Shown here piece after piece: positions 2,657-37,466 of a stretch of 64,000 nucleotides of DNA. The stretch lies in the sequence record PQ826431.1, one strand, 5' to 3'. The first letter of the stretch is position 1. Each line of letters begins with the position of its first letter. Position numbers and translations under genes: made by a program. The notes under the pieces were generated by a model. The model ran no database searches. It was not told the DNA's origin and worked only from the letters and a program-made list of their open reading frames with translations. Origin of the DNA: a phage.

Positions 2657-3152
2657 CTAAAATCTCCTCTTTTGTAATATTATCCAACTCTTTAAAGGAT
2701 GAAATCTCGTTTAATAATCCTATTTGATCAGCTTCTAGAGGATAAGTGTTTTTATCTGTTTTTCTAGACAGAATATCTTCAACAAACTTATCAATAGCCA
2801 AAGAAGAATCATAAAATTTTAAAAGTTGGTAATCCATAGGAGATATTTTGTCATCTCTTAGAAATATTTCTAACATGTTTTCAGGAGTATCATGGTTTAG
2901 TTTATGTTCACCAAAAATATTAACTTCATAAACATCTTTGCCAAACCAACGTTTCTTCTTTTCAACAGTATAGGTTTTTGCCACCAGACCATCTAAACAG
3001 TTTCTTGCCCTCTTACATGTTTGACGGTAAGAGTGGATAGCGCCTTCAACAAACTTAGCAGGAACTTGTAACATTATTAATCTCCTATGTTTAAGAAATG
3101 CCCCCGAAGGGGGCAGTTTGTTAAATAGCGGTTCCTTCGAAATCCGCCACAT
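2640..3152 (-). CDS. hypothetical protein (170 aa)
   Basis: ORF preceded (minus sense) by GC hairpin and AGGAG RBS. Confidence 0.5.
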   Translation of the reverse strand: MWRISKEPLFNKLPPSGAFLKHRRLIMLQVPAKFVEGAIHSYRQTCKRARNCLDGLVAKTYTVEKKKRWFGKDVYEVNIFGEHKLNHDTPENMLEIFLRDDKISPMDYQLLKFYDSSLAIDKFVEDILSRKTDKNTYPLEADQIGLLNEISSFKELDNITKEEILDGIRL

Positions 3153-3813
3153 TTACGAGATTAATATTTTCAGATTTAGAAGTCAAGTTGTTTTCTGCAA
3201 CAGATTTTTCTTCAGTATCCGCCTCGTTACCTGCCACGTTACGAGGTTCTTCTTCACCGTAGGGATTACCGAATTTCAAAAGATTGATCAATTCTTCTTT
3301 GGAGAAGTTTTCTAAATCATCATCTGTTAATTCAATAATCTCGTCTTGTTCTTCAATAAATGTTTCACCACCAGAAAAAGCATCTCGCTTTTTAGCTACT
3401 TCCATAGCCTGTTCTGGTGTTGCTCCTGCATCAAGAGCAGCTAAAGCAAAGTCTGACCCGCTTCCTACCGCATAATATTCTTCATCAATCGGATATGCAC
3501 GTGTTGGGTTGTTACCTTCGTGCAGGAAAATACGTCCATCTGGATGAACAACAAGTGCAATAAACTCTTCATCTTCTTTATCTGGATCAGAGTGAATCAT
3601 CAAACCAGGGACAGCATCACGTGCTGCTTCGCACTGTAGATTTTGTTCAAACCATTGAAAGAAAGAAAGCACGGAGGTCAGACGACCAGCACCGCCTACA
3701 AGGTAATCTCCAATTTTTCGGACCTTTTTGAAATTAATAGAATCTACACGTCCACCAAAAGTTACCTTACCGTCACTCAAAATCTTATTTTTGGTCGCAA
3801 TAATTGTCGTCAC
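3121..3813 (-). CDS. Ntn-hydrolase / proteasome-HslV-like peptidase with acidic C-terminal tail
   Basis: N-terminus 'MTTIIATKNKILSDGKVTFGGRVDSINFKKVRKIGDYLVGGAGRLTSVLSFFQWFEQNL' parallels HslV/proteasome beta N-terminus (Thr right after Met, GxxGxxxD, 'AVGSGSDFALAAL' near C-domain); about 50 aa acidic C-terminal extension. Confidence 0.55.
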   Translation of the reverse strand: MTTIIATKNKILSDGKVTFGGRVDSINFKKVRKIGDYLVGGAGRLTSVLSFFQWFEQNLQCEAARDAVPGLMIHSDPDKEDEEFIALVVHPDGRIFLHEGNNPTRAYPIDEEYYAVGSGSDFALAALDAGATPEQAMEVAKKRDAFSGGETFIEEQDEIIELTDDDLENFSKEELINLLKFGNPYGEEEPRNVAGNEADTEEKSVAENNLTSKSENINLVNVADFEGTAI

Positions 3814-4316
3814 TATTCTTCCTCCTCTGTTAATGTTTTAAGAACCGCTTTCCCGCCATTCACATATTTGCAGATGTATTCTATCGCACGTAGTGTCTCT
3901 TTGTCAACAAAAATTTGATCAGACGTTGCGAGCGGGTTATTAAGAAGATCACTGCAATCACGAACAAGCAGTGCTTTCTTATTAAACAAATTACTTAAGA
4001 ACAGTAACTTCGCCTCTTCTTCTGTTATGTGCAGAAGGCTAGGATCGGAGCCAGCTATTCCTATTATACAATCAAACAAGCTTTCTTTACTATCAGAAAG
4101 TTCTTGAAAATGGTTTAAAAGCCAATCTTCTCCTAGACACCAACATTTAAACATTTCCAGTTTATCTCGGAGGGTCATATTCTCTAAAGTAAGAGCAATC
4201 TCTTTTTCAATATGGTTTACACAAATTTGACGAAATTCGTTAGGTTTTACGAGTCCCGTTTGATAGCACTCATCTATACCGCTTCTTCCGATAGCTATTG
4301 TTGCTACACCCATCAA
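3813..4316 (-). CDS. hypothetical protein (167 aa)
   Basis: ORF abutting Ntn-hydrolase gene; no motif recognised. Confidence 0.5.
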   Translation of the reverse strand: MMGVATIAIGRSGIDECYQTGLVKPNEFRQICVNHIEKEIALTLENMTLRDKLEMFKCWCLGEDWLLNHFQELSDSKESLFDCIIGIAGSDPSLLHITEEEAKLLFLSNLFNKKALLVRDCSDLLNNPLATSDQIFVDKETLRAIEYICKYVNGGKAVLKTLTEEEE

Positions 4317-4348
4317 TCCTCCTTATAAATGGCTTCCCTGCCACATTA

Positions 4349-5107
4349 TTAAATAAACACTTCAGTAATCAGTTTAGACAAACGTCCACGTTTATTATCG
4401 TCCGTTGTCAGTTCAACATATCCAATAAAATCTACAATTGGCTCACGAACACCCTCTTCATTCTCTGGATATAAAAGTTCCAAAATTTGATGCAGACCAT
4501 TGCTACGTTTTTTAATTGCATATGTCTGGCGAACATCGCCTAATACAATAACATGCGTATTAATACCTGCACGTTCAATAAGAAGTTTAAGTGTTTCTGT
4601 TGACATAAGTTGTGCTTCGTCAATAATGACGATTGTATTATCCAGGGTAGCCCCCAACAAATAGTTAGGAATATTCAATTCGATCTTACCTGATCCAATA
4701 TCGTTTTCCAATTTGTTGGCTGTCATGAATTGCTGGAAAATACGTTTTGTAGATTCATAGTGTGCTGCTAGTTTATCTGTTTTATCCCCAGACAAGAAAC
4801 CAATCTGGTCATCTCCGACTTCAGTAGGGTTCTTGATAAAAAGTAGTTTACGGAAGTCTCCTGAACGAAGCATCTGCAAAGCTTTCCATAAAGCAACAGA
4901 GGTTTTACCAGTCCCTGCCGGAGCATTTACAACAGTCAGATCATTCCAAATCATGCTTTGAACAATCTTATTTTGGTCCCCTTCAGGCATAAATTCATCT
5001 AAACGGTAATCGTCATTACCTACCGCTTTTGCTGCATAACGGCTTTCAATCTTTGCTGAATTAGCCAGTTTCTGCCGTTGTGTTTTAGCTGCGGTTTTAT
5101 TTCCCAT
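4349..5107 (-). CDS. phoH: PhoH-like ATPase
   Basis: Walker A 'NAPAGTGKTSVAL' and overall PhoH-family pattern; start moved from track position 5158 to internal ATG at 5107, which is preceded by AAAGGAG RBS and lies downstream of the lysozyme stop and a GC hairpin. Confidence 0.8.
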   Translation of the reverse strand: MGNKTAAKTQRQKLANSAKIESRYAAKAVGNDDYRLDEFMPEGDQNKIVQSMIWNDLTVVNAPAGTGKTSVALWKALQMLRSGDFRKLLFIKNPTEVGDDQIGFLSGDKTDKLAAHYESTKRIFQQFMTANKLENDIGSGKIELNIPNYLLGATLDNTIVIIDEAQLMSTETLKLLIERAGINTHVIVLGDVRQTYAIKKRSNGLHQILELLYPENEEGVREPIVDFIGYVELTTDDNKRGRLSKLITEVFI

Positions 5108-5144
5108 AGTAGCACTCCTTTTAGAAGGGGCCGAAGCCCCTTTA

Positions 5145-5645
5145 TTAGTTGTAAGCATCTAAAGTTCCAGAAGTCAGAACTTTAATTACTCGTTCAGCAC
5201 GGTTTGGCGTCTGGCTATACCATCGGCTTTTACGCATGTTTTTACCTGCTTGAGTATAATATGCATTGCTGATTAAAGTCAAGCTATTTTGAAACCCTTC
5301 AGCACCTTTTAACCCCAACTGGAAAACCATGTTGATTATTCCCAATTTACGAGTATCACTAACCTTATCATAGATTGGTGATAAGATAGTACTGTTTTTT
5401 ATGTCTCTCTTCACTTTTGCAACATCGTCAGCAAAGATTTGACGGGCTTCTTTTTCTGTGATAACTCCATTAGTCTTACGACCAAGAAGATTATCTAAGA
5501 TTTGAATAGCCTTTGCTTTATCTTTTATTTTAGTCAGAAGGTGTCCTATGCCGACTGTCCAATAACCAAGATGGTCTTGATAAACAGTAAGCTTCAGTCC
5601 TTCATCGACTCGTAGCATATCAAACTCATCTACTACTTTAGCCAT
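5145..5645 (-). CDS. e: endolysin, T4 E-type lysozyme (GH24)
   Basis: Translation 'MLRVDEGLKLTVYQDHLGYWTVGIGHLL...NGVITEKEA...INMVFQLG...SRWYSQTPNRAERVI' closely parallels T4 lysozyme ([28 protein letters not shown] ... SRWYNQTPNRAKRVI). Confidence 0.9.
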   Translation of the reverse strand: MAKVVDEFDMLRVDEGLKLTVYQDHLGYWTVGIGHLLTKIKDKAKAIQILDNLLGRKTNGVITEKEARQIFADDVAKVKRDIKNSTILSPIYDKVSDTRKLGIINMVFQLGLKGAEGFQNSLTLISNAYYTQAGKNMRKSRWYSQTPNRAERVIKVLTSGTLDAYN

Positions 5646-5807
5646 TTACTTCCTATTCGTCGTCTCCTACTCCGTGATCCAACTCGTTAAACAACAAATG
5701 TTCTGGAGAAGTTTCACGTTTTGGTTTCGTTTTCTTTATGTTGGACTTCAGCTCATTTGCCAAAGCACGAGAAAAGATCTTACGTTTCTGTTTACTTTTC
5801 ATAATTG

Positions 5808-6068
5808 TTACTCCGCAATTTGAGCCATGAGATCACGCAGTTCGGTAAAACCGCCTACGTATGTTACCTCCCCGTTCACTTCAGACAGAATTTGTGGAAA
5901 TGTGCGTGGAGGAACTCCGGTAAGATCAACAACTGTTTTAGTCATTGATTCTAAATCATAGTCTTGATCAAGACTTAAATATTCAAACTGTTTATTGCGC
6001 ATGGTTAATAGTTGTTTTGACATTTCGCAAAATTGACAGTTAGGTTTACCAAAAATTACAAATTCCAT
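5808..6068 (-). CDS. glutaredoxin/NrdH-like redoxin
   Basis: 86 aa with 'CQFC' active-site-like motif near N-terminus ('FGKPNCQFCEMSKQLL') in the nucleotide-metabolism cluster. Confidence 0.55.
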   Translation of the reverse strand: MEFVIFGKPNCQFCEMSKQLLTMRNKQFEYLSLDQDYDLESMTKTVVDLTGVPPRTFPQILSEVNGEVTYVGGFTELRDLMAQIAE

Positions 6069-6910
6069 TACCTCTCCTTATTAAGTAATACTGCTAAAGA
6101 CTGTTCAATACCTTTATTTAAATCTGATTTTGTAAGATAGTGACTGGTTACTAGTTGTGACTTCACCGGACGTGCTGCTGGAGCATTATAGGTTGAAGCT
6201 GATACCGCCGATATCTTAACAGGTTCTGGCATCTGTGTCAAGATCTTTTCCGCAAACTCCGCCCAAGAAATAAAATGGCTTCCTGCAAAATGGTAAGTCT
6301 TAACAGACCTTGACCAACCTGTTTTTAATACTTCAAAAATAGCTTCTGCTAAATCTGGAGCATATGTTGGACAAGAGAACTGATCAGCAACAACAATAAA
6401 ATCACGTTGTCCATCATTATAGCGAGACAACATGGTTTTTAGAAAGTTATTTCCAAATTCGCTATATACCGAGGCTGTTCGAATAATATATGCATTTGGG
6501 TTAACTCCTCGCACCATTTTTTCACCAAGTTCTTTCGTATACCCATAATTGTTTATTGGGTTAGGTGTAGTATCTTCAAAAATAGGATGAGAATAATTAA
6601 AAATATAATCTGTAGAAATATGCACAAAATCAATTTTAAGTTTGCTGCACACTGCCGCAATATTTGCAGGTCCATACGCATTAACAGCCAAAGCAGTAGC
6701 AAAATCATGTTCTGCTTTATCTACAGCCGTATAAGCGGCGCAATTAATAACACCATCTACATAATCTTCAACAATAGCGTTTCGCACAGCTTCAAAATTT
6801 GTAATATCTACACGTTCTTTAGGATAAATTAAAGATACATTTGAAGGAACCACTTTACGTAAAGCTTGTCCCAGTTGTCCATTACCGCCCAATACCAGAT
6901 ATGTTAGCAT
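6068..6910 (-). CDS. rmlD: dTDP-4-dehydrorhamnose reductase (RmlD/RfbD-like)
   Basis: Rossmann 'LVLGGNGQLGQAL', and blocks 'CAAYTAVDKAEHD', 'HISTDYIF', 'NYGYTKELGEKMV', 'IIRTASVYS', 'ADQFSCPTYAPDLAEA' matching RmlD conserved regions. Confidence 0.8.
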   Translation of the reverse strand: MLTYLVLGGNGQLGQALRKVVPSNVSLIYPKERVDITNFEAVRNAIVEDYVDGVINCAAYTAVDKAEHDFATALAVNAYGPANIAAVCSKLKIDFVHISTDYIFNYSHPIFEDTTPNPINNYGYTKELGEKMVRGVNPNAYIIRTASVYSEFGNNFLKTMLSRYNDGQRDFIVVADQFSCPTYAPDLAEAIFEVLKTGWSRSVKTYHFAGSHFISWAEFAEKILTQMPEPVKISAVSASTYNAPAARPVKSQLVTSHYLTKSDLNKGIEQSLAVLLNKER

Positions 6911-7470
6911 ACACCCTCGCTACGTAACTGTTGAAAAGATTTAGCCATTGCATCTTTTGTTGATAGGATAGGTTTAAAACCTTCGTCAAAAATCATATCG
7001 AAGCCCCAATCGATCCCTATGTCAGGATCATCCCAACGTAAACTTTGTTCACTAGAAGGGTCGTATGGAGTTGTGCATTTGTATTCAAAGATCGCATCCA
7101 TACTCAAAACTATAAAACCATGTGCCAAACCAGGAGGAAGCCAAAACTGCGTATGGTGTCGTGCACGAAGAACAACACCGTCCCAAGCACCGTAAGTTGG
7201 ACTGTCTTTACGTAAGTCTACAGCGAAATCCAATACTTCCCCACTTACACAACGAACAAGCTTACCTTGCGGATTATTTGTTTGAAAGTGCATTCCTCGC
7301 AAAACACCGAAGTTTGATTTAGACATATTATCTTGAACGAAAGTTTGTTTACCAATAATATCTTCGTATTTTTGTTCATTGTATGTTTCTAAAAAGAAAC
7401 CACGATCATCTTTATAAACGTCTGGTTTGATAATTACCGCACCTTCAATTTTTGTTTTTTCTACTTTCAT
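6904..7470 (-). CDS. rmlC: dTDP-4-dehydrorhamnose 3,5-epimerase (RmlC/RfbC-like cupin)
   Basis: 'VLRGMHFQ...GKLVRCVSGEVLDFAVDLRKDSPTYGAWDGVVL...LPPGLAHGF' matches RmlC cupin signature; overlaps rmlD start by 7 nt. Confidence 0.8.
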   Translation of the reverse strand: MKVEKTKIEGAVIIKPDVYKDDRGFFLETYNEQKYEDIIGKQTFVQDNMSKSNFGVLRGMHFQTNNPQGKLVRCVSGEVLDFAVDLRKDSPTYGAWDGVVLRARHHTQFWLPPGLAHGFIVLSMDAIFEYKCTTPYDPSSEQSLRWDDPDIGIDWGFDMIFDEGFKPILSTKDAMAKSFQQLRSEGVC

Positions 7471-7479
7471 TTTCTCTCC

Positions 7480-7806
7480 TTACCAGACATGTTGAGAAAT
7501 AATAGTTTCCGTTTTAATGTTATATTTTTCAAGTAGCTCTGCATAGGCTTCTTTTGCATTCTCATTCAATTGCTCAAGATCTACAGCTATGCTTCCTTCT
7601 CCACCTTCTAAATCAAGGCCATATATGCAATAAGACTCATCTGCATCGTAGAAAGGAGAGATGCGGCTTAAGTCAAGACCTTCTTGTAAGAACCAATTAA
7701 AATCTCCATCAAATTCTTCTTCAATTCTAGGATCTTCTCCTACAGCCTCTTCCCACTTATTAAAAGGTGCACCCTGTAACATACGCCATTCGATATCAAT
7801 ACCCAT
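7480..7806 (-). CDS. hypothetical acidic protein (108 aa)
   Basis: ORF in array. Confidence 0.45.
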   Translation of the reverse strand: MGIDIEWRMLQGAPFNKWEEAVGEDPRIEEEFDGDFNWFLQEGLDLSRISPFYDADESYCIYGLDLEGGEGSIAVDLEQLNENAKEAYAELLEKYNIKTETIISQHVW

Positions 7807-7981
7807 TTTTCATCTCCTCCTCTTCTTGAGCAGCTTTAATAATTGCTTCATAAATATCGTAAGCAATGCCTCCACAACATCTAGCTTCGAAAGCTATTGC
7901 TTCTGCAATGTGATCTGTTAATTCTCGTGGAATACGGACATACTCTTTTTCATTCTCCATCTTCCACCTCTTCTTTTTCAA
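7796..7981 (-). CDS. hypothetical protein (61 aa)
   Basis: Small ORF overlapping neighbour by 11 nt. Confidence 0.35.
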   Translation of the reverse strand: MKKKRWKMENEKEYVRIPRELTDHIAEAIAFEARCCGGIAYDIYEAIIKAAQEEEEMKNGY

Positions 7982-8095
7982 AGACTACTACTCGTCCCTC
8001 ACCATGACAATTCAGGCAAGGAAATGTTACCATAATTTCCACTTCCATCTGTCCAGTCCCACCGCACACAGGACAAAAAATAAGTTTTTCAGCCA

Positions 8096-8305
8096 TTATT
8101 CCTCCTTAATTATTTCAAACTTGGCAACACCATTTACAATAATATGACCACAAGACATAACTCCTAGCCAAGGATCGCCGTTTTTCTTCAGGCGTTTACC
8201 GAATACATCACAAAAACCATTCTTCATTTCGGAGGCTTCATAAGAAGCCCCTTTGTCAAAAACGTCTTTGAATGTGTCGATTATACCAACACATCTCAAA
8301 ATCAT
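8096..8305 (-). CDS. hypothetical protein (69 aa)
   Basis: Small ORF immediately upstream of nrdB (stop overlaps). Confidence 0.4.
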   Translation of the reverse strand: MILRCVGIIDTFKDVFDKGASYEASEMKNGFCDVFGKRLKKNGDPWLGVMSCGHIIVNGVAKFEIIKEE

Positions 8306-9390
8306 TAGAAGTCAAGCTCCTCATCATCAGAGAGATCTTTGTTAGCTGAATTCAATTTGTAGTTAGTTAACTGAATCTCTTGGGCTGCTGACTGAATCAA
8401 ATCAGGATTCAACCATTTTTCCATCCAAGCTAAAGGACTATGTTTAGGTGCTTTAAACTTAGCTTTCATTTTCAATCGACGATAAATAGGAGCAGCATTG
8501 AAATAAACCCACTGTTTAGACAATTCGGCGTTAAGACCTACAATAAAACGACCTTCACTAAACAGGTAGTCACACCACTGTTCCTCTTGTTCAACAACAG
8601 TGTCGAGGATCAAAGTCAACTCTTCAATATTGTCTTCGTAAATTTTACGCCAAATTGGGTCATGCATCAATGCATCAATTACAGCATAATCCATCTTAAC
8701 ATGCAAGATTTCATCTAGCATAATTTTCTGGATCAGTTTACAAGCCCCAACAAACAGTTGTTGTTCTGCCATAGCAAAAGTAGCAGAGAAGGAAGATATA
8801 AACTGAATACCTTCTAATCCAATCAGGGCTACCATCCCTTTAAGAATCAGCAGTCGAAGTTCATCGTTAGCTTCAATCAATCCTAGAGCATACTTATGAC
8901 CAGCTTCTTCCAACTGACCCATGATATCAGCAATGATACCCATACGATTGAAAATTTTATCATTAATCATAATCTGATTGATGACTTCAATTGGATCTGG
9001 AGTACATTGACGGATTATTTCAGAATACGTTAACGCATGGAGAACTTCCATTTCACTCTGCTTCATCATCATAGCACAGGCTTCATTGTTACTCAAGAAT
9101 GGAGAGAACAAAGTGATGATTGATTTTGCAAGAGAATCATTTTCCCATTGGAACGATAAGTTTTTAATCATAACATCATAGTTGTTTTTAGAACAAGCTA
9201 CGAAATCTTTACGTGTCTGATCCAGATTAACTTCGTTTTCATCCCAATCTTGTGCTTTTTGAAGTTTGTAGAGTTTGTGCATTTCTGGATAAGTTACGTT
9301 AACAGAATCAAAGATCCCTAATTGCTCCCCCAAAAATACTGGATATTTTCCTGTTTTGTAAACTTCATTGTGTAAATTAATTGCTGCCAT
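8305..9390 (-). CDS. nrdB: ribonucleotide reductase class Ia small subunit (NrdB)
   Basis: Ferritin-like di-iron blocks ('SEMEVLHALTYSEIIRQ', 'LIGLEGIQFISSFSATFA', 'DEILHVKMD'); acidic C-terminal tail typical of R2; preceded by hairpin plus GAGGAG RBS. Confidence 0.9.
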   Translation of the reverse strand: MAAINLHNEVYKTGKYPVFLGEQLGIFDSVNVTYPEMHKLYKLQKAQDWDENEVNLDQTRKDFVACSKNNYDVMIKNLSFQWENDSLAKSIITLFSPFLSNNEACAMMMKQSEMEVLHALTYSEIIRQCTPDPIEVINQIMINDKIFNRMGIIADIMGQLEEAGHKYALGLIEANDELRLLILKGMVALIGLEGIQFISSFSATFAMAEQQLFVGACKLIQKIMLDEILHVKMDYAVIDALMHDPIWRKIYEDNIEELTLILDTVVEQEEQWCDYLFSEGRFIVGLNAELSKQWVYFNAAPIYRRLKMKAKFKAPKHSPLAWMEKWLNPDLIQSAAQEIQLTNYKLNSANKDLSDDEELDF

Positions 9391-9433
9391 TTAAAATTCT
9401 CCTCAATAAAAAGGGGCCGAAGCCCCTTTATAT

Positions 9434-10087
9434 TTAGCCTCGAAATACTGTTTTTGTTTCCGCCAGGTGCCAATAGAAATCCGCCTTGTTTACAAGAGTG
9501 TTGTACACCTCTGGATAAAAATGTTCTTCCTCTTTGTAACGATCCGCTGTTTCCCTGATTGACTTAGCTTTATCTTTTAGCCAAGCGAAGTGTGCCTCTT
9601 CCTCTGTAGCGAAGTAACCTAAATGCTTTCCTTTGTGTCCAGATGATTTAGAAGAAATCTTACCATCGGATTTTCTTACAGTTACCCCTAAAAGGGATTT
9701 TCTTTCCGTCCTTTTTGAGTAACTTAACAGAGTATTCACATATGCTGGAACAAACCTACAATACGCTGGACAATAGACCGTATTACCTTCAAGTACAAGG
9801 TCTTTGTCCAGAACAAAGTTTGCTACAAAGTTTTCTTGATACCACATGTCGAAGTTTGAAAACATAAACCACTCGTCACAAACCGTCACACCTGTATACC
9901 CAGGTCTTGCTTGTTCCATTTTATAGGCTCTTTCGAACATGTTTTTCCAAGCTTTGTAAGACGGGTCTGGCTTCCCGTCTACAAATAATCGTCTTTCTAC
10001 ATCAACTACTAAGGGGATTTCTCCCCTTTCGGTAGTAACGGTCACTGCACGTTTACCTTTGAGCATTTGACCTCCTACATGCTGCAA
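9434..10087 (-). CDS. free-standing HNH-family homing endonuclease-like protein with AP2-like C-terminal DNA-binding region
   Basis: Located between nrdB and nrdA; shares 'CDEW..F.NF' block and C-terminal 'KGKHLGYFATEEEAHFAWLK' (AP2-like) with the paralog at 20446..21075. Confidence 0.55.
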   Translation of the reverse strand: MQHVGGQMLKGKRAVTVTTERGEIPLVVDVERRLFVDGKPDPSYKAWKNMFERAYKMEQARPGYTGVTVCDEWFMFSNFDMWYQENFVANFVLDKDLVLEGNTVYCPAYCRFVPAYVNTLLSYSKRTERKSLLGVTVRKSDGKISSKSSGHKGKHLGYFATEEEAHFAWLKDKAKSIRETADRYKEEEHFYPEVYNTLVNKADFYWHLAETKTVFRG

Positions 10088-12321
10088 CCCTCACATCCAG
10101 ACTCTTTCAGGTTATCTTCTTGTGCTAAAGAATCTGCTGATTTTGTTCTACTATTAAGGTAATACAATGACTTACCACCCAGTCTAGCAAAGTTCAAAAT
10201 AAATTTCATCTCTTCTTTAACTGATAAACGTCCCCCTACCAATTTAGAATAATCTAACCAAGAATCACAAGAAATTCCTTGGTCCGTAAACTTGGTAAAG
10301 ATACCATACATTTCTGCAAGATCTTTAGCCGGAGTATCCCAGGCAGATTGGTAGAACATTTTCAGTTTTTCATAGTCTGGAACAATAAATAATACACTGC
10401 CTTTCTGACTTTGTTTATACATAATGGTATCACGAACAGGATACAGAGAGTTAGTAGTATTGCTTACCAAACTGCTGGACTCATTAGGTGCAATAGCAGC
10501 CAAGACACTGTTACGGATACCACCTTGTTCAATGATTTCAGCACGTAAGCCTTCCCAGTCCATTTTAAGATCAAAATTACCGATACTATCTACTGTTTTA
10601 GCATAAGTGTCAATTGGTAGCCAACCTTGAGGCCATTTGGTCTTATCGATCCACTCCGCATTACCTTTTTCCTTAGCCAGACGCAGAGAGGCTTTTGCCA
10701 ACCAAAAGTAATGACGTTCTGCAAGTTCATGCATTAATTTTTTAGCATAAGCATCTGAATAATTTACAAAATTACTTGCCAAGTAATGCGCTAAGTTTGT
10801 AATGCCTACACCAATAGATCTACGTGCTTTAGCAGTTATTTCGTTATGTTTAAATGGATAATCCATTGTTTCAATAACGTTGTCAATTGTCAATACAGTG
10901 TAGTATGCAACATCTTCATATTCTTCAGGTAATACACGACCAGCAACAATAGAAGATAAGAAACATAAAGCCAATTCTTGATCTTCTGTATTCTCACCAG
11001 TAAAGAGATCCGGCATACTGTGGAAAGCTTTAGTTGGTAAGAAGATCTCTTGACACAGGTTTGATTGATACACCGTATCCAGGAAAGGTGTATGGTTGTT
11101 AACGTTGTCAGCAAAGAACATGTAAATACGTCCTGTTTCTGCACGTTGAACAATAATCTCTGTCAGAAGATCACGAGCCTTAACAAATTTTTTCTTAATG
11201 CGACGACGGCTTACTTTGTCATAAACTGCATCAAACTCTTCTTCACTTTTATACAAAGCTTCATAAAGTTCAGGAGCATCATCACAACTAACTAACATCC
11301 AATCTTCGTTTTTTGCTGCTCGACGCAAGAACGAACGGTTAACAACAATAGAATAATCCAGTTTGTCTACTCGTTTATCTATAGGTGTTGTTGGATTCTT
11401 CAGTCGAATCAGATCGTCGAAGTCTGGTTCAAGTATGGTAAAGGTAACTGTAGCACTACCTCCACGGCTTGCTTGCTTCGAAGCTCCAACACTATCTTCC
11501 ATCCATTTCAGATACGGAAGAAGACCACCATGAATAATACGATTATTCTTAACACCTTGACCTGTGGCACGAGTTTGAAGATTAACACCAATACCTGCGT
11601 TATTCAACGTATACTCATGAGCTAAGTAATTAGCAATGGCTAAAGATTCTGCCGTATCGTCTGCACGGAATAAACAACAAGACGCACTTCCTTTGATTGG
11701 AGTTCGTAGAGTTGTCAGATACGGCGATGGCAGATTAATCTTAAGATCGCTAACATAAGTATAAAGTTTTTTAATATCTTCTATACGGCGTTCTTTTGGT
11801 TGGATCTCCATAACCTTCATTGCGATACCAATGAAAAGAAACTGTGGAGACTCATGCACCACATCGTTTACTGCATCTCGAATAAGATATTTATCTACCA
11901 TCTGACGTAAAACAGAATAACCATAAGTTAGATTTTTATTATGCTTTACAATCTTACCGATTTCTTTGATCTCTTCATCAGTATAATCCATTTTAGCCCA
12001 ATGTCCACGTTCTACCATATCATGATAAAAGGTATTCAGTGAAGGGATACTGTGGTATCCCCCATGAGCCTGTTTGTAAATCATACCCAGAAGAAGTCTT
12101 CCTGCCATATCACTGTAAGCTTGTGTTTTCTTGTCAATACACGCTGCAATCATTGCTTTATGCAGATCACGTGTAGACACACCGTCATAACACCGCTTCA
12201 CAGCTTCTAATTCAATTTCAGACCAGTTTAGTTTACCTGCTGCAAATTCAGACCACTTGCGAAGTTTTTCTGGATTAAACTCCTCTGTCTTACCGTTAGA
12301 TTTAGTTACAAAACGAATCAA
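10075..12321 (-). CDS. nrdA: ribonucleotide reductase class Ia large subunit (NrdA) with N-terminal ATP cone
   Basis: 748 aa; blocks 'SASCCLF', 'ETGRIYMFFADNVNNHTPF', 'SNLCQEI', 'LALCFLSS', 'GIRNSVLAAIAPNESSS', 'KSLYYLNSRT' and C-terminal 'ESGCEGCSM' parallel E. coli NrdA. Confidence 0.95.
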   Translation of the reverse strand: MIRFVTKSNGKTEEFNPEKLRKWSEFAAGKLNWSEIELEAVKRCYDGVSTRDLHKAMIAACIDKKTQAYSDMAGRLLLGMIYKQAHGGYHSIPSLNTFYHDMVERGHWAKMDYTDEEIKEIGKIVKHNKNLTYGYSVLRQMVDKYLIRDAVNDVVHESPQFLFIGIAMKVMEIQPKERRIEDIKKLYTYVSDLKINLPSPYLTTLRTPIKGSASCCLFRADDTAESLAIANYLAHEYTLNNAGIGVNLQTRATGQGVKNNRIIHGGLLPYLKWMEDSVGASKQASRGGSATVTFTILEPDFDDLIRLKNPTTPIDKRVDKLDYSIVVNRSFLRRAAKNEDWMLVSCDDAPELYEALYKSEEEFDAVYDKVSRRRIKKKFVKARDLLTEIIVQRAETGRIYMFFADNVNNHTPFLDTVYQSNLCQEIFLPTKAFHSMPDLFTGENTEDQELALCFLSSIVAGRVLPEEYEDVAYYTVLTIDNVIETMDYPFKHNEITAKARRSIGVGITNLAHYLASNFVNYSDAYAKKLMHELAERHYFWLAKASLRLAKEKGNAEWIDKTKWPQGWLPIDTYAKTVDSIGNFDLKMDWEGLRAEIIEQGGIRNSVLAAIAPNESSSLVSNTTNSLYPVRDTIMYKQSQKGSVLFIVPDYEKLKMFYQSAWDTPAKDLAEMYGIFTKFTDQGISCDSWLDYSKLVGGRLSVKEEMKFILNFARLGGKSLYYLNSRTKSADSLAQEDNLKESGCEGCSM

Positions 12322-12337
12322 CTTCTCCTCCCTATTA

Positions 12338-12592
12338 TTAATGCATATTCAAAACATCTACATCATAACCGAACTTCATTTCATTAAAAAGTCCATTAGC
12401 ATATAGAAAACCTTCAAAATGAGTTATGTCATCAAACCCTTTTGCTTTTGCTCGACGGTCTGCTTCTTGTCTTTTAGGAGATAAACGTTTTGAAGTGTCT
12501 AGAATTACAGTTACATTACAACCAACAGTTTCATCAAAATAGACTTCGATTTCACAGCCTTCATATTTATTATCAGTCATTGTCCCTCTCAT
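12338..12592 (-). CDS. hypothetical protein (84 aa)
   Basis: ORF directly downstream of nrdA. Confidence 0.45.
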   Translation of the reverse strand: MRGTMTDNKYEGCEIEVYFDETVGCNVTVILDTSKRLSPKRQEADRRAKAKGFDDITHFEGFLYANGLFNEMKFGYDVDVLNMH

Positions 12593-13032
12593 TGATTAGT
12601 ATCATCTGCTTTCGCAGGATCATAAGAGTTACCGAAATCATCCATCTTAATATGTGACGCACCCCAACCTGTAAATTCTTCATCACCAAAATGAAAAATA
12701 TCATTTTCTTGATAGATTCGTTTAAAACCACAATTAGGTGAAACAGGGAAAGTGAAAAGCGTTGTATTTGCAAACACTACTCGCTTATCGTTATTGCTTC
12801 GGATATTCACATTACGCTCAACAGAATAGTGTGAATCTTCAGCCATACCCAGCATTACAAGCGACGCTCTAATAACAGCATTTTGTTTCTCGTGTGGGAT
12901 ATTACCATTGTGTTTATTTGATTCTAGTTTCCAGATAGGGGTAGACATTACAGTAGACATGCTTACGGTAGCCCAAGTTGTAGTATTTACTAATGACATA
13001 TTTTCTCCTTCATTTTGAATGGGAGGACTCAC
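12589..13032 (-). CDS. hypothetical protein (147 aa)
   Basis: ORF with 4-nt overlap to neighbour. Confidence 0.45.
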   Translation of the reverse strand: MSPPIQNEGENMSLVNTTTWATVSMSTVMSTPIWKLESNKHNGNIPHEKQNAVIRASLVMLGMAEDSHYSVERNVNIRSNNDKRVVFANTTLFTFPVSPNCGFKRIYQENDIFHFGDEEFTGWGASHIKMDDFGNSYDPAKADDTNQ

Positions 13033-13097: not shown

Positions 13098-14096
13098 TCA
13101 CCATTTAGTATGATTTGTTAAAAGTTGACGATGTTGAATCCAGCCTTTGAAATTGCCAGACCAAAACTTACCATTACGATCTACATGGGTAATGCCTGGC
13201 TCCCAAGAGTTAAAATCCCAAGGAGCATTGATAAACAAATCTTCAAAACAGTTCTCTCCATATTGTTCGTATGTTTCTTGCATTGGAGTGGCTTGATGTT
13301 CAAACGGAGAAGCATGAACCTTGCGCCCAGTCAGCAAACGACCATAGATATCTAAAGCTTTATCTTTAGTTGCATTCAAACGACGATAGCTAACCTGTGC
13401 ACAACACGAAGCTGAAATAGCTTTGGCTTCTTCCAAAGTAAGCACAACAACTTCTCCAGATTCATCTTGAACGTAGTATCCACCAAAAACAAAATGATCG
13501 TCACCTTCTGTGCCAATAGTATCATAGAAATGGTCTACATAAGGTGTGTGCCATTGCCCTGGTTTCAGCACTTCTGGTGTAGATCCTTCATACTCTTTGT
13601 GCATCTCTTTAGCCAAAGCTTCGATAGTAGGATCGGCTTCTTTGTCATCACGCAGCCACCAGAAATTTTCATATTCTGTTGCTGTCAGAACTGTTTTAAT
13701 TCGTTGGAAAGGTTCCAGAAGACGGTTTGCAACTTGTTTGTGGTACCCTGCCAAAGAGAATTCTTCTGCAAAACGTGCTGCACTAAGCGCGGCAAGATCC
13801 CACCACTCTTGAGCAGTATAACCTGCATCAATAAGAGCGTCATGATCAACACCTTTATCCTGCATACCAGGTTGGTTAGCCCCAAAACGATAAGGACGAG
13901 CAGGTTGATTTCGCACCATTTCAATCAGTGTTTTAACAGGTATAGCACGGCTAGAAGCAGCATTACGACTGAACAGGCGGTGAGTCATCAATTCTGAATG
14001 AATAATACGTGGATATTCTAGTTCAAAAGTTACAATCTCTTTTCCGTCTTCAGTGATGGAATGCGCAATAATACTAGCCGAAATCTGTTTTGTCAT
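13098..14096 (-). CDS. thyX: flavin-dependent thymidylate synthase (ThyX-like)
   Basis: 'LMTHRLFSRNAASSRAIP' resembles the ThyX RHRxxxxxxxSxR signature; sits in the nucleotide-metabolism block; 332 aa is longer than typical ThyX. Confidence 0.6.
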   Translation of the reverse strand: MTKQISASIIAHSITEDGKEIVTFELEYPRIIHSELMTHRLFSRNAASSRAIPVKTLIEMVRNQPARPYRFGANQPGMQDKGVDHDALIDAGYTAQEWWDLAALSAARFAEEFSLAGYHKQVANRLLEPFQRIKTVLTATEYENFWWLRDDKEADPTIEALAKEMHKEYEGSTPEVLKPGQWHTPYVDHFYDTIGTEGDDHFVFGGYYVQDESGEVVVLTLEEAKAISASCCAQVSYRRLNATKDKALDIYGRLLTGRKVHASPFEHQATPMQETYEQYGENCFEDLFINAPWDFNSWEPGITHVDRNGKFWSGNFKGWIQHRQLLTNHTKW

Positions 14097-14753: not shown

Positions 14754-15329
14754 CTAACTTTCAATTTCCTGCAATAGGATTTTGACTATTTGTTTGCGGC
14801 GTTTTGCTACTGTGCTTTCAGGTTCTATTTTACGCTTCTTCAGCCATGCCTTATCTTTCTTAGCTCTACACAAAGCTATCGCTTCTTTTTCAGCTTTTGC
14901 TTCTTCAAAAGATATGCCTTGCTTGTCTGCATAAGCAAGAATAGAGTTGCACAATTTACAAACCATTCGCAAATCTTCTTCTTTCACATAGATCAAACGG
15001 AAAACAAAAAGAGGAATATCATCAAAACATTGAAGTTGTTTTGCTGCGTGAATATGATCCACTTGGAAGTCTTTCATTCCTCCCCTATGTCCACATATTT
15101 CGCACTCACAATTCCAAACTTGTTTTGGTTTTCCAGTTTTCTTGTCTATCATTACATTGCCGTCTTTATCTACTCGATCAACTTTAAAACGCCTTGCATT
15201 GATAACCTTAATTTTATTAGGGTGTCTCATCCATGCTTTTCTAAAACATCCCCTAAGATAAGTATAAAATTCAGCTTGTGTTTTCCAGGGTGTTCCTTCA
15301 CCCCACATTATTTTTGGTTCACCTGCCAA
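14754..15329 (-). CDS. putative recombination endonuclease VII-like (His-Me finger, zinc-binding)
   Basis: 'CECEICGHRGG...FQVDHIHAAKQ...VCKLCNS' mirrors T4 endo VII 'CLICQREL...HLDHDH...LLCNLCN' architecture. Confidence 0.4.
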   Translation of the reverse strand: MAGEPKIMWGEGTPWKTQAEFYTYLRGCFRKAWMRHPNKIKVINARRFKVDRVDKDGNVMIDKKTGKPKQVWNCECEICGHRGGMKDFQVDHIHAAKQLQCFDDIPLFVFRLIYVKEEDLRMVCKLCNSILAYADKQGISFEEAKAEKEAIALCRAKKDKAWLKKRKIEPESTVAKRRKQIVKILLQEIES

Positions 15330-20445: not shown

Positions 20446-21075
20446 TTATGTTTTAATCTTGCCAAAATACAATACTTCAGCTTCCTGTCTTGCTGATATA
20501 GCATCTTCAATATCAGTAAATGCTCCAAGACGGATATCTTTTCCTTGATAGGATATACGAGCAATCCATCTTTTTTCTTTCTCGCTCCACACAACACCTG
20601 TTTTACCAGAAGTGTTGTTTTTCTGTTTTCGTGTATTGTATGACTGGACAGACCTTGTAGCCCAGCGACAATTTTCTTTACTGTAATCTTTTTCCGAGTC
20701 TATTCTGTCAAGAGATAAACCTTTAGGTCTATCTCCCATATCCTCAAAAAATGCAGAGAATGAATTTCTCCAAGCATCGCAGACCTTAATACCACGACCA
20801 CCGTAGTATTCAAAGTGAGTATTGTTTTTGTTATAGCATCTCCCTAACATAGCTTCCCACGATTTGTATGCTCCTGTTTGTGTTGTTTGCGGTCTACACT
20901 TCGAACAATAAGAACTTTTATTCTTCCTAAGTGTTGCCATAGTTACCGTGCAAATATTACCACAATCACAAGAACAAGTAAAACGTCTTTTGCCATGCTT
21001 GTCCCTTTCAATCTCTTCTAAGACAGTATAACAACCACATTTCTTACCTACAAGGTCTACTCTCTTGGCTCCCAT
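20446..21075 (-). CDS. HNH homing endonuclease with N-terminal zinc finger and C-terminal AP2-like domain
   Basis: 'LSLDRIDSEKDYSKENCRWATRSVQSYN' (HNH_3-type motif), 'YYGGRGIKVCDAWRNSF', C-terminal 'GVVWSEKEKRWIARISYQGKDIRLGAFTDIEDAISARQEAE' (AP2-like). Confidence 0.7.
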   Translation of the reverse strand: MGAKRVDLVGKKCGCYTVLEEIERDKHGKRRFTCSCDCGNICTVTMATLRKNKSSYCSKCRPQTTQTGAYKSWEAMLGRCYNKNNTHFEYYGGRGIKVCDAWRNSFSAFFEDMGDRPKGLSLDRIDSEKDYSKENCRWATRSVQSYNTRKQKNNTSGKTGVVWSEKEKRWIARISYQGKDIRLGAFTDIEDAISARQEAEVLYFGKIKT

Positions 21076-33148: not shown

Positions 33149-35224
33149 GTGGCAAAGAAAAAGGCAGCAGGTAGTTTAGCTGGAGTAGATATTGAAGTAA
33201 AGGCTCAACCAGGTAAACAGACTCTTGCAATGGATTTAATGCCAGAAGTTATGATTTATGGTGGTGCCGCTGGATGTGTTTCTGCTGAAACGGAATATCT
33301 TACAAAAGATGGTTGGAGGCAGATTAGTGAATATTCGGGAGAGGATATTTACCAATACAATCCTAAGAATAAGCGTTTAGAATTGGTAACACCTTATTTT
33401 GTAGAATACGATTTAAATGGAGATAACCTATACAGAATAACAAATGGTGTAGGATTATTCCAAGAACTTAGTATGGAACACCGTTTTGTATTCTATAAGA
33501 AAAAGAAATCAAAGAAACATTTCGAGATTCTTGTAGGAGATCTTATTGCATTACAGCAAATAGGAAAACCCCTGCAAGGTTATGTAGAAAATCCATTCGG
33601 TAAACGTGTTCCTTTTAACATACCTGGTAAAAAGAGCACTTACTTAAAAATACACGAGGTTATTTCAACAGATGATAAGAAATATTGTTTTGAGACTCCA
33701 AGCAGTTATATTGTCTTTAGACGTGGCGATCACTGCTTCGTTACTGGGAATAGCGGCAAGTCTCGTCTGCTATTGCTGAAAGCTTTAAAATACGCCTACA
33801 AAGACCCTTTGTTTGGTGGAATACTTTTCCGTAAGAACACCACTGCTCACCGTAAACCAGGTGGTCTGTTTACAGAAGCAAAACGTTTGTATCTTCCTTT
33901 ACAACCACACGTAAAAGAAAGTACAATGGATATCATTTTTGAAGCCACTGGTGGTGGAACCCTCAAATTTGACCATTTGGAAAATGATAACGTAACAGCA
34001 GAAACAAACCATCAGGGTACACAGTATTCAATGGTAGGTTTTGATGAGTTAACCCACTTCACACAATATGAAATGCTCTATCTTCTGGGACGTATGCGTT
34101 CAGAGTCAGAAACAAGTTTCATGTTGTGCACATGTAACCCTGACGCAGATAGTTGGGTTTTGAATTGGGTGTTACCTTATCTTGATGAGGGTGGTTATCC
34201 TAGAGAAGATATGTGTGGTAAACAAAAATATTTCATCATTGTTAACGATGAACCTGTTTTTGCTGACACACCTGAAGAACTGAAAGAAAAATATCCAGAA
34301 AACTGTTTCATGGAAAACCCTAATACAGGGGAGACAGTTGTTATTGAACCACAAACTTTCGTATTTATTGGTGGGACAATATTTGATAACCCAGAACTAA
34401 TTAGGCTTAACCCTAATTACTTAGCACAGCTTAAATCACAAACAGCTATCAAAAGAGCACAGCTTCTGGACGGTTGTTGGTTTGCACGTATCCAGAAAGA
34501 ATCTTTCTTTCAACGTGAATGGTTACATAAAATATCTTATAAAGATGTTCCTAACAATCTTAAACTAATGCGAGCATGGGATAAAGCTGTTTCAGTTCCT
34601 ACAGAAACTTACCGTTATCCAGACTATACAACATCTGTCAAAATGGGTAAAGACCAAGATGGTAATATCTACATCTTTGGCGACTATGATTATGATGCTG
34701 TGGATGAGAAAAGTAAAATTTTCGGAAGGTTTCGAAGACTACCTGGGGAAAGGGATAACCTGATTCTAAATCAATGTAAGATTGATGGACCAGAAGTTAC
34801 AGTAGTTCTTCCTAAAGACCCATCTGGTGCTGGGACAATAGAATATACAGAGTCTGCAAAGAAACTTATTCTAGAGGGTTTTGTTGTTAAACCAGATGCT
34901 ATGCCAGGCAACAAGAAAAAGCTTCAGCGTTTTATGCCTTTTAGTAGTGCGTGTCAAAACGGTTTTGTTTATATTGTTGAAGATTCTTTCCCTAATGTGG
35001 AAACTTTAACCCACTTTTATAAAGAATTGGAATCTTTCAATGGTGAAAGATCTACAGCCACTATTAAAGATGACATTCCCGATGCTGCTGCCTCTTGTTT
35101 TAATACTCTGTCAAAAGAGAATACTTTCAAAGCAGTAGCTATCCCTACAACAACAAATGCTCCTACAGGATACAGTAGAATGAACAGCGGATTTCACCAA
35201 CCGTATAGTGTCCGTAAAAGATAA
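33149..35224 (+). CDS. terL: terminase large subunit (TerL) interrupted by an in-frame mini-intein
   Basis: Walker A reconstituted across the insertion ('YGGAAG' + 'SGKS' = GGAAGSGKS), Walker B 'MVGFDELTHF'; 691 aa, 532 aa without insert; position before portal. Confidence 0.8.
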   Translation: MAKKKAAGSLAGVDIEVKAQPGKQTLAMDLMPEVMIYGGAAGCVSAETEYLTKDGWRQISEYSGEDIYQYNPKNKRLELVTPYFVEYDLNGDNLYRITNGVGLFQELSMEHRFVFYKKKKSKKHFEILVGDLIALQQIGKPLQGYVENPFGKRVPFNIPGKKSTYLKIHEVISTDDKKYCFETPSSYIVFRRGDHCFVTGNSGKSRLLLLKALKYAYKDPLFGGILFRKNTTAHRKPGGLFTEAKRLYLPLQPHVKESTMDIIFEATGGGTLKFDHLENDNVTAETNHQGTQYSMVGFDELTHFTQYEMLYLLGRMRSESETSFMLCTCNPDADSWVLNWVLPYLDEGGYPREDMCGKQKYFIIVNDEPVFADTPEELKEKYPENCFMENPNTGETVVIEPQTFVFIGGTIFDNPELIRLNPNYLAQLKSQTAIKRAQLLDGCWFARIQKESFFQREWLHKISYKDVPNNLKLMRAWDKAVSVPTETYRYPDYTTSVKMGKDQDGNIYIFGDYDYDAVDEKSKIFGRFRRLPGERDNLILNQCKIDGPEVTVVLPKDPSGAGTIEYTESAKKLILEGFVVKPDAMPGNKKKLQRFMPFSSACQNGFVYIVEDSFPNVETLTHFYKELESFNGERSTATIKDDIPDAAASCFNTLSKENTFKAVAIPTTTNAPTGYSRMNSGFHQPYSVRKR
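33275..33751 (+). other. mini-intein (Hint domain, about 159 aa, no endonuclease domain) inside terL P-loop
   Basis: Begins 'CVSAETEYLTKDGWRQISEY' (intein block A-like), ends '...YIVFRRGDHCFVTGN' followed by Ser; excision restores a canonical Walker A. Confidence 0.65.
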
Positions 35225-35227
35225 TTG

Positions 35228-37464: not shown

Positions 37465-37466
37465 TC

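Follow-up and report, generated by a model that had tools for sequence, protein, structure and literature searches.

The phage DNA analyzed here, a stretch of 64,000 nucleotides (sequence record PQ826431.1; the window), encodes RmlC and RmlD of the dTDP-L-rhamnose pathway but neither RmlA nor RmlB, and both genes are under purifying selection. We find it reasonably likely that the pair is what has been retained of a larger phage operon, that the host complements it, and that its product passes to the phage's own glycosyltransferase (GT) cassette for transfer to an acceptor other than DNA. On this account, the pair represents a four-gene operon cut down to two genes, maintained and complemented by the host. 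The rml genes, the idea that they serve DNA glycosylation, and the variant lacking rmlAB have all been published, so the finding as such is ordinary: these are auxiliary metabolic genes, correctly recognized and already annotated. Phapecoctavirus and phi92-like phages are nevertheless frequent broad-host-range therapeutic candidates, and their rhamnose genes are conserved.

The rmlC and rmlD genes and their surroundings

The window belongs to a phAPEC8-like Escherichia coli myovirus (Phapecoctavirus) and is 99.3% identical to Mt1B1_P17. Three features are central to the analysis.

6068 to 6910, minus strand: rmlD, dTDP-4-dehydrorhamnose reductase, 280 aa (TIGR01214, PF04321, motifs)
6904 to 7470, minus strand: rmlC, dTDP-4-dehydrorhamnose 3,5-epimerase, 188 aa (TIGR01221, PF00908, motifs)
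7475 to 7479, minus strand: GGAGA, serving as the rmlC Shine-Dalgarno sequence and marking the deletion junction (comparison with phAPEC8)

The two open reading frames (ORFs) overlap by 7 nt, and base 6068 is both the last of rmlD and the first of the glutaredoxin ORF. Scored against NCBIfam equivalog models with curated cut-offs, RmlC passed TIGR01221 with 225.3 bits (cut-off, 155.75) and RmlD passed TIGR01214 narrowly with 239.5 bits (cut-off, 224.05); RmlD fell below the cut-off of NF007440, the enterobacterial-type RmlD model (118.6 versus 308 bits). PF00908 matched RmlC over profile positions 1 to 167 of 168 (E = 7.8e-67), and PF04321 matched RmlD (E = 1.5e-73). The closest solved relatives of RmlC are RmlC structures, 1dzr among them (E of about 1e-55), and those of RmlD are the RmlD structures 3sc6 (E = 2.5e-44) and 1vl0. 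The catalytic motifs of RmlC are intact (RGMH61FQ, QGK70LVR, FEY130KC, and STKD173A); we take H61, K70, Y130, and D173 to be equivalent to H63, K73, Y133, and D170 of the Salmonella enzyme. In alignments with 3sc6 and 1vl0, RmlD has kept the GxxGxxG motif as GGNGQLG (residues 8 to 14) and the Thr/Tyr/Lys triad as ST100D and Y122xxxK126. Both ORFs are therefore predicted from sequence to encode functional RmlC and RmlD, which bears out the identification made in a preliminary description of this DNA. Because RmlD cleared its equivalog cut-off narrowly, the product of the reduction at C4 could be either rhamnose or 6-deoxy-L-talose.

The phage pair has families, folds, and catalytic motifs in common with bacterial RmlC (Salmonella, 1dzr) and RmlD (Bacillus anthracis, 3sc6). 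It differs from the bacterial pathway in lying in a lytic phage, where a nucleotide-metabolism operon surrounds it and RmlA, RmlB, and a neighboring rhamnosyltransferase are all lacking, and its identity to the E. coli K-12 enzymes is 50% for RmlC versus RfbC and 31% for RmlD versus RfbD. A scan of viral contigs for RmlC relatives returned two loci only. Downstream of rmlCD are genes for PhoH, a T4-type lysozyme, and glutaredoxin; upstream are those for NrdB, NrdA, a ThyX-like protein, and an NT5C nucleotidase. The placement described earlier, between lysozyme/glutaredoxin and NrdAB/ThyX, is thus correct. A promoter and terminator scan of positions 3,000 to 13,000 gave no excess over shuffled expectation (31 versus 27.9 and 6 versus 5.4, respectively).

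The absence of RmlA and RmlB, previously noted for the window, was confirmed by tblastn with phage RmlA and RmlB and E. coli RffG, RffH, and RfbA as queries: neither the window nor the remainder of the closest relative's genome gave a match at E ≤ 1e-3. The phage does not carry the RmlA and RmlB of its own that make the dTDP-rhamnose pathway of the phAPEC8/phi92 type self-sufficient.

Loss of rmlB-rmlA and selection on the remaining genes

A complete rmlB-rmlA-rmlC-rmlD operon is found at the equivalent position in phAPEC8 and in Justusliebigvirus alia, with gene order and neighbors alike, and the sister genus of phAPEC8, the phi92-like phages, also has all four genes. The operon of phAPEC8 and phi92-like phages (Stephanstirmvirinae) is orthologous to the pair in the window, has the same orientation, and is likewise flanked by a conserved 108-aa ORF and glutaredoxin. 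The rmlCD genes of the window and phAPEC8 are 98.6% identical in nucleotide sequence, but a 1,876-bp rmlB-rmlA segment present in the phAPEC8/phi92-type operon is missing from the window. The deletion is precise (1,876 bp) and lies between two GGAGA ribosome-binding sites. On the transcribed strand of the window, the junction reads ...TGGTAAGGAGA followed directly by GAAAATG; in phAPEC8, the start of rmlB reads ...TGGTAAGGAGA followed by ACTGATG and that of rmlC reads ...TTAGCGGAGA followed by GAAAATG. The ribosome-binding site and spacing of rmlC are exactly preserved, and all 10 genomes lacking rmlBA that were examined share one and the same junction.

Among published genomes, the rmlCD-only variant also occurs in nepoznato, ESCO37, Mt1B1_P17, ZCKP1, and anhysbys, and it had already been remarked on for ESCO37 (PMC10269720). 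Phapecoctavirus-type rmlCD is present in about 65 records and rmlBA in only 42, so that rmlBA is absent from about one third of Phapecoctavirus records. The genomes without rmlBA come from Denmark, France, Thailand, Egypt, and Indonesia, with the other sources unstated in the records. We propose that a phage rmlB-rmlA-rmlC-rmlD operon, embedded among the early/middle nucleotide-metabolism genes, was the ancestral state and that rmlCD is the half of it that survives. A single recombination event between the two GGAGA sites would have excised rmlB-rmlA and left the rmlC ribosome-binding site intact, and the deletion allele would later have spread through Phapecoctavirus genomes by recombination.

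The rmlCD genes are still under purifying selection. All 17 Phapecoctavirus genomes compared have both genes intact; dN/dS is 0.02 to 0.03 for rmlC and 0.11 to 0.13 for rmlD, and the values within the group lacking rmlBA (0.03 and 0.13) equal those of the group that has it. Alleles private to the former group comprise 18 synonymous and 8 nonsynonymous changes (P = 3e-7 against neutrality); the 8 are conservative, and none affects a catalytic residue. The force of this argument is weakened by recombination of rmlCD alleles between genomes with and without rmlBA; the rmlCD genes of ECML-183-2 and ESCO13 differ at 4 nt.

These data bear on the idea that rmlCD has been functionless since rmlBA was lost and has merely not yet disappeared. 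Erosion of the operon has been repeated: besides the loss of rmlBA, RmlB is fused to RmlD in the Justusliebigvirus phage "cardinal" and both rmlA and rmlC are gone, which destroys the pathway, and yet this phage has kept its GTs and is viable. Moreover, K-12 MG1655 served as isolation host both for phages with rmlBA and for phages without it. A decaying remnant would, however, hardly be expected to be intact in 10 of 10 genomes of varied origin, to show the synonymous excess given above, or to have kept the rmlC ribosome-binding site and spacing exactly, and its substrate would be available from host RffH and RffG. We rejected pseudogenization on the basis of the intact ORFs, dN/dS, and synonymous excess, and consider decay of this kind quite improbable.

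Probable supply of the RmlC substrate by the host

Without RmlA and RmlB, a host-made substrate for RmlC, dTDP-4-keto-6-deoxy-D-glucose, would keep the phage pathway running. This intermediate would come from RffH and RffG of the enterobacterial-common-antigen (ECA) pathway, supplemented by RfbA and RfbB where present. Of 5,426 complete E. coli genomes, 5,309 carry rffG-rffH, whereas rfbC was found in only 2,348 (43%, a lower bound from blastn). RmlA of the related phages is 65% identical to E. coli RffH, and their RmlB is 50% identical to RffG. Since the genes for making the substrate are nearly universal and most E. coli genomes show no rmlC of their own, the two phage genes would secure dTDP-L-rhamnose in any host. 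The host thus probably supplies the RmlC substrate in vivo. The earlier suggestion that the phage relies on intermediates made by host RmlA and RmlB is well supported, both by near-identical phages that differ only by the clean rmlB-rmlA deletion and by the near-universal RffG and RffH paralogs.

The same branch point allows for a role without any glycosyl transfer, in which RmlCD divert the ECA intermediate or in which dTDP-rhamnose inhibits RmlA/RffH and so spares dTTP. RmlA is feedback inhibited by dTDP-rhamnose, and the rml genes lie in a dNTP-supply operon, as dTTP sparing would have it. Diversion could lower the synthesis of ECA, a reported primary receptor of related phages: ECA synthesis branches at the RmlC substrate, ahead of WecE in the K-12 cluster, and Vequintavirinae and phi92-like phages have been counted among the bona fide ECA-targeting phages (PMC8594841). 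However, the ancestral and still common form of the operon adds RmlA and RmlB, which consume dTTP and make more of the intermediate, and this speaks for synthesis of a product and against sparing or draining. An obvious sink for the sugar also exists in the four conserved GTs. We therefore regard a drain or regulatory role as unlikely.

The glycosyltransferase cassette and candidate acceptors

Four PHROG glycosyltransferase families are encoded outside the window, at positions 45,046 to 48,190 of Mt1B1_P17, beside primase/helicase and DNA polymerase. The preliminary description had suggested a search of the rest of the genome for RmlA/RmlB, glycosyltransferases, or base-modifying enzymes; of these, the glycosyltransferases of this four-gene cassette were found. 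The cassette is most probably the consumer of the sugar, and dTDP-rhamnose made with host help would feed it and lead to glycosylation of a non-DNA acceptor. Cassette and rmlCD share roughly 130 records, a co-occurrence confounded by common ancestry because these records in effect represent a single subfamily. Two distant syntenic contigs, L025 and L026, carry the cassette as well (sequence around the cassette only). The link to rml is weakened by copies of the same cassette in lambdoid/P22-like phages and a Serratia prophage, where the retrieved flanking sequence contained no rml genes, and by "cardinal," which has kept the GTs although its pathway is destroyed. Confident structure models were obtained for a GT-B/GT4-like enzyme and a GT-A enzyme with a DDD motif. 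Fold searches with these two models against PDB and BFVD returned generic GT4 and GT-A neighbors only, with no DNA glucosyltransferase among the best 50 matches.

A role in DNA hypermodification, in which a phage GT moves the sugar of dTDP-rhamnose onto a modified base and thereby evades restriction, had already been proposed for these genes by Olsen et al. 2020 (PMC7552041), and the co-location with dNTP enzymes had been read as a hint of it in the preliminary description. Besides the position of rml within the nucleotide-metabolism block and that of the cassette next to replication genes, this reading can draw on gp103, the GT-A enzyme. Its similarity to TET-associated GT (TAGT) is faint and below threshold (19.5 bits; cut-off, 27.5), as is a likeness over about 40 residues to the T-even beta-glucosyl-HMC alpha-glucosyltransferase PHROG (phrog_842). 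In phage RL38JI, cytosine glycosylation is attributed to a GT4-like enzyme (PMC13326640), so the fold by itself is compatible with a DNA acceptor.

The enzymes that would prepare a base for glycosylation were nevertheless not found. A tblastn search of the composite genome with E. coli ThyA at E ≤ 10, which could miss a very divergent homolog, returned only noise for a ThyA-family hydroxymethylase or hydroxylase, and genome-wide annotation contains no TET/JBP enzyme. The phage thymidylate synthase is of the ThyX type; this ThyX-like protein had no sequence match in PDB. The glycosylated DNAs of T-even phages, RB69, and DLP3 (glucosyl-5hmC and arabinosyl-5hoC) resemble the present case in that a nucleotide-sugar supply, encoded or exploited by the phage, is combined with phage GTs amid DNA-metabolism genes. 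Those systems require a ThyA-family 5hm/5ho-pyrimidine synthase, however, and their DNA is restriction resistant (PMC13326640), whereas the present group has no ThyA homolog, cleavable DNA, and restriction-sensitive phages. In the ESCO collection, HincII (GTYRAC, a site with all four bases) failed only on ESCO10, ESCO47, and ESCO58, which are Tevenvirinae, and it follows that the sequenced Phapecoctavirus isolates, including the rmlCD-only ESCO37, were cut. Among relatives that carry the orthologous operon and GTs, the phi92-like phages have been called "exceptionally susceptible" to restriction-modification systems (PMC8594841). Restriction sites are also strongly avoided in the genome (observed versus expected: PstI, 0 versus 31; BamHI, 0 versus 25; NcoI, 0 versus 16). 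The literature on relatives and this in silico avoidance both indicate virion DNA that is not restriction resistant. The pathway is also dispensable in "cardinal," and the best fold matches contain no DNA glucosyltransferase. Bulk DNA rhamnosylation is therefore unlikely, and the hint taken from gene co-location is unsupported. We give very little credence to restriction evasion through a rhamnosylated base, and scarcely more to DNA as an acceptor of any kind. The question is thereby narrowed, with the GT cassette as the candidate consumer.

For the non-DNA acceptor that we favor, a host envelope glycan or a lipid-linked intermediate is a tentative candidate, and a virion protein is a more doubtful one. 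A role in surface polysaccharide is possible; LPS and ECA are reported receptors of related phages. RmlCD might, though we hold this to be doubtful too, tap the host ECA branch point so that the cassette builds a rhamnose glycan on virion proteins or on LPS/ECA. If true, this would be an unrecognized glycosylation system in widely isolated therapeutic coliphages. The structural proteins encoded in the window have no Ser/Thr-rich stretch or tail, and a 2026 cryo-EM paper on phi92 makes no mention of glycans, rhamnose, modification, or extra or unassigned density. Virus-encoded glycosyltransferases are likewise known from cluster F1 mycobacteriophages such as Che8 and Rita and from giant viruses with fibril glycans. 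Unlike in Che8-type virion glycosylation, the GT and rml genes here sit outside the structural module. More than 300 mycobacteriophages, cluster F among them, have distant homologs of gp103 (about 26% identity) in their right-arm GT genes, and capsid glycans are reported in this group (PMC11256854, citing Freeman 2023). The natural series of rmlBACD phages, rmlCD-only phages, and the "cardinal" null provides isogenic-like material for the search for the acceptor.

The rmlC and rmlD genes and the missing half of the operon

Two overlapping open reading frames (ORFs) on the minus strand, with exactly the boundaries first assigned to them, encode the last two enzymes of dTDP-rhamnose synthesis.

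6904-7470, minus strand: rmlC, 188 aa; PF00908 end to end (E = 7.8e-67); 225.3 bits with the NCBIfam equivalog TIGR01221 (cutoff, 155.75 bits)
6068-6910, minus strand: rmlD, 280 aa; PF04321 (E = 1.5e-73); 239.5 bits with TIGR01214 (cutoff, 224.05 bits, a narrow margin)

Phage RmlD scored below the threshold of the enterobacterial-type model NF007440. The nearest solved structures are RmlC for the former protein (E of about 1e-55, Salmonella 1dzr included) and RmlD for the latter (3sc6, E = 2.5e-44, and 1vl0). Catalytic motif residues are kept in RmlC (H61, K70, Y130, and D173) and RmlD (GGNGQLG, T100, Y122, and K126), which we take to match the Salmonella residue numbers. Family models, solved structures, and catalytic motifs thus confirm the homologies proposed in the preliminary description and, on sequence grounds, place the phage proteins in the RmlC and RmlD families. 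The neighbors are also as described: PhoH, a T4-type lysozyme, and glutaredoxin are encoded downstream, and upstream lie four small ORFs and the genes for NrdB, an HNH endonuclease, NrdA, a ThyX-like protein, and an NT5C nucleotidase. RmlA or RmlB homologs were found neither in the window, as had been claimed, nor in the remainder of the genome of Mt1B1_P17, the closest relative. In the same gene array, downstream of PhoH, lies a gene for an HslV/proteasome-like peptidase homolog (3121-3813, minus strand; weak PF00227 match) with an acidic C-terminal extension.

The HNH ORF between nrdB and nrdA (9434-10087, minus strand) encodes a 217-aa homing endonuclease (phrog_953, E = 2.8e-57). Nepoznato and Mt1B1_P17 lack it, with only 44 nt separating nrdB from nrdA, and phAPEC8 has a different ORF of 135 aa there; in T4, mobE is similarly placed between nrdA and nrdB. 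Further HNH endonuclease ORFs on the minus strand lie at 14754-15329 (phrog_1985) and, between a MazG-like gene and a ligase gene, at 20446-21075 (phrog_374), a position taken in Mt1B1_P17 by two small hypothetical ORFs.

Escherichia phage Mt1B1_P17 matches the region at 99.3% identity, and many further genomes of Phapecoctavirus (phAPEC8-like myoviruses, Stephanstirmvirinae) match it at about 99%; their records already annotate both genes as dTDP-4-dehydrorhamnose epimerase and reductase. At the same position, phAPEC8 carries rmlB-rmlA-rmlC-rmlD-grx, and this full rml gene order, with the same neighbors, recurs in Justusliebigvirus alia, a member of the sister genus (phi92-like). The arrangement in the window is this known Stephanstirmvirinae operon minus rmlBA: a stretch of exactly 1,876 bp (rmlB-rmlA) is missing from the window and from nepoznato, among others. 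The window junction, on the transcribed strand, reads TGGTAAGGAGA followed by GAAAATG, while phAPEC8 has, at the rmlB start, TGGTAAGGAGA followed by ACTGATG and, at the rmlC start, GCGGAGA followed by GAAAATG, which places the deletion breakpoints within two GGAGA Shine-Dalgarno sequences. The rmlC ribosome-binding site and its spacing stay normal after the deletion.

This junction is common to all 10 genomes examined that lack rmlBA beside rmlCD (rmlBA-minus), which argues for a single event. The rmlCD alleles of these genomes are not monophyletic, and those of ECML-183-2 differ by only 4 nt from those of ESCO13, which has rmlBA (rmlBA-plus). Hence the deletion, or else its flanking alleles, spread by recombination, a process documented in this genus for REC (ESCO5 x ESCO37; PMC10269720). 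Phapecoctavirus-type rmlCD (at least 95% identity) was found in 65 phage database records versus only 42 for rmlBA, counts that include GenBank/RefSeq duplicates, so that about one third are rmlCD only. In PsgM04F (OR584014), phiWec181, and phiWec188, rmlBA is 86 to 94% identical to that of phAPEC8 and rmlCD only about 67% identical to that of the window, which points to mosaicism that breaks between rmlA and rmlC, the boundary of the deletion itself. Near-identical Phapecoctavirus and Justusliebigvirus genomes are labeled in the databases as phages of Campylobacter, Acinetobacter, Pseudomonas, Klebsiella, and Serratia; either these host names are wrong or the host range is exceptionally wide.

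Proposed host supply of the first two steps and probable maintenance of rmlCD

RmlC shares its substrate, dTDP-4-keto-6-deoxy-D-glucose, with enterobacterial common antigen (ECA) synthesis, in which this sugar nucleotide is the branch-point intermediate. In K-12 it is the product of RffH and RffG, whose genes directly precede that of the transaminase WecE; identity to RffH is 65% for phage-type RmlA, and identity to RffG is 50% for RmlB. K-12 rffG-rffH was matched in 5,309 of 5,426 complete Escherichia coli genomes versus only 2,348 for K-12 rfbC (a lower bound, given blastn sensitivity), which supports reliance on host intermediates, the less favored alternative of the preliminary description. 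The first two steps would be available in any E. coli host and the last two would vary with the host, and a phage needing dTDP-rhamnose in every host would require only rmlCD.

All 17 genomes compared have rmlC and rmlD intact. The dN/dS ratios for rmlC and rmlD were 0.03 and 0.13 in the rmlBA-minus group and 0.02 and 0.11 in the rmlBA-plus group. Because recombination blurs this comparison, we counted alleles private to the rmlBA-minus group, as judged against seven rmlBA-plus genomes only. There were 18 synonymous and 8 nonsynonymous changes (P = 3e-7 under neutrality, with 78% of sites nonsynonymous); the latter were all conservative, and none fell at a catalytic residue. This is evidence that the remaining rmlCD half is probably maintained in rmlBA-minus genomes.

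In Justusliebigvirus cardinal (PQ567651), recombination between paralogous SDR genes of one operon has deleted 2.3 kb and, with it, rmlA and rmlC.

L032 (the cardinal locus) 3387-4295: chimeric SDR gene, an RmlB N-terminal part (about 125 aa) joined in frame to an RmlD C-terminal part

As read from its sequence, cardinal shows a second, independent erosion of the rml operon, so that phage-encoded rhamnose synthesis is accessory, not essential.

A glycosyltransferase cassette as candidate consumer

The rmlCD-only variant is already known, having been deposited for many phages and noted for ESCO37 (PMC10269720). Added here are the way in which the deletion arose, a quantitative rationale for host complementation, the maintenance evidence, the second erosion, and a candidate glycosyltransferase (GT) cassette. 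A check for glycosyltransferases beyond the window found the cassette in the closest relative.

Mt1B1_P17 45,046-48,190, outside the window: four adjacent GT genes

The cassette is flanked by a Ter-type cluster plus endolysin on one side and primase/helicase and DNA polymerase genes on the other. GT homologs and rmlCD occur in the same record set (65 at 95% identity or more, with about 66 more from the sister genus and Klebsiella-infecting relatives). The same cassette also occurs in late regions of lambdoid/P22-like phages and a Serratia prophage, and no rml genes were found in the flanking stretches examined for these. The link between the cassette and rhamnose is circumstantial.

AlphaFold models of two cassette proteins, gp105 and gp103, were confident (pLDDT of 93.6 and 87.7). 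The gp105 model is GT-B/GT4-like (nearest folds, PglA, BshA, MshA, Gtf3/GtfC, TarM, SdgB, and PimA), and the gp103 model is a small GT-A in which a DDD motif is invariant (nearest folds, STIV A197, TarP, and the LH3 GT domain). The acceptors of these neighbors are lipid-linked glycans, teichoic acids, small molecules, and Ser-rich proteins, so the fold does not fix the acceptor.

In the lambdoid/P22-like phages and the Serratia prophage (L027, L028, and L029), the homologous small cassette encodes proteins of about 180 and 210 aa and then a GT-B of about 310 aa and adjoins lysis and terminase genes. The Ter-type cluster of Mt1B1_P17 (33,000-44,000, outside the window) encodes TerD, vWA-TerF-like, TerC, TelA-like, ComF-like PRTase, and HAD hydrolase proteins directly upstream of the endolysin and GT cassette, an arrangement kept in distant metagenomic relatives (L025 and L026). 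NADAR-domain and Sir2 proteins are encoded elsewhere in this genome.

The acceptor of the sugar

The preliminary description favored a glycosylated or hypermodified DNA base, an idea raised for exactly these phages by Olsen et al. in 2020 (PMC7552041). Sub-threshold matches of gp103, over about 40 residues, to a TET-associated GT and the T-even beta-glucosyl-HMC alpha-glucosyltransferase family are in its favor, as is the assignment of a GT4-like enzyme of phage RL38JI to cytosine glycosylation (PMC13326640). However, all characterized glycosylated phage bases start with a ThyA-superfamily 5hm- or 5ho-pyrimidine nucleotide synthase, and the DNA is restriction resistant (PMC13326640). An E. coli ThyA query had no match, even at an E value of ≤10, in the composite 151-kb genome (the window plus Mt1B1_P17), no TET/JBP is annotated, and the thymidylate synthase is ThyX type. 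In the ESCO collection, only three Tevenvirinae isolates (ESCO10, ESCO47, and ESCO58) were uncut by HincII, which indicates that the sequenced Phapecoctavirus isolates had cuttable DNA, among them rmlCD-only ESCO37, whose rmlCD is 99.6% identical to that of the window. Phages of the phi92-like group, in which the operon and the GT cassette have orthologs, are described as "exceptionally susceptible" to restriction-modification (PMC8594841; also PMC10844046). Several restriction sites are purged from the composite genome, the strategy of a phage with restriction-exposed DNA: observed versus expected counts were 0 versus 30.6 for PstI (CTGCAG), 0 versus 25.2 for BamHI (GGATCC), 0 versus 15.8 for NcoI (CCATGG), 1 versus 18.9 for PvuI (CGATCG), and 1 versus 16.6 for PvuII (CAGCTG). 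GTAC, GGCC, and CCGG stood at observed/expected ratios of 0.32 to 0.37, and GATC was not avoided (1.02). Together with the dispensability of the pathway in cardinal, these results make DNA, even with a sparse or nonprotective modification, a very improbable acceptor.

The ThyX-like protein (13098-14096, minus strand) is long (332 aa), with a weak Pfam Thy1 match (33 bits), no PDB sequence match, and a strong match to the phage thymidylate-synthase family phrog_85. It has THR...S...SSR where the canonical ThyX motif, RHR, is expected.

The candidate acceptors are non-DNA ones, on the virion or in the host envelope. Transfer of the sugar to virion proteins is a candidate because gp103 homologs (about 26% identity) occur among the right-arm GT genes of >300 mycobacteriophages, and two cluster F1 members, Che8 and Rita, reportedly carry glycans on their capsids (PMC11256854). 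Against it, glycans go unmentioned in a 2026 cryo-EM study of phi92 that built atomic models, and the structural proteins in the window have no Ser/Thr-rich stretch or tail. Remodeling of the host envelope by the phage GTs, equally a candidate, is compatible with the GT fold neighbors, and related phages are described with ECA and the LPS core as receptors (PMC8594841).
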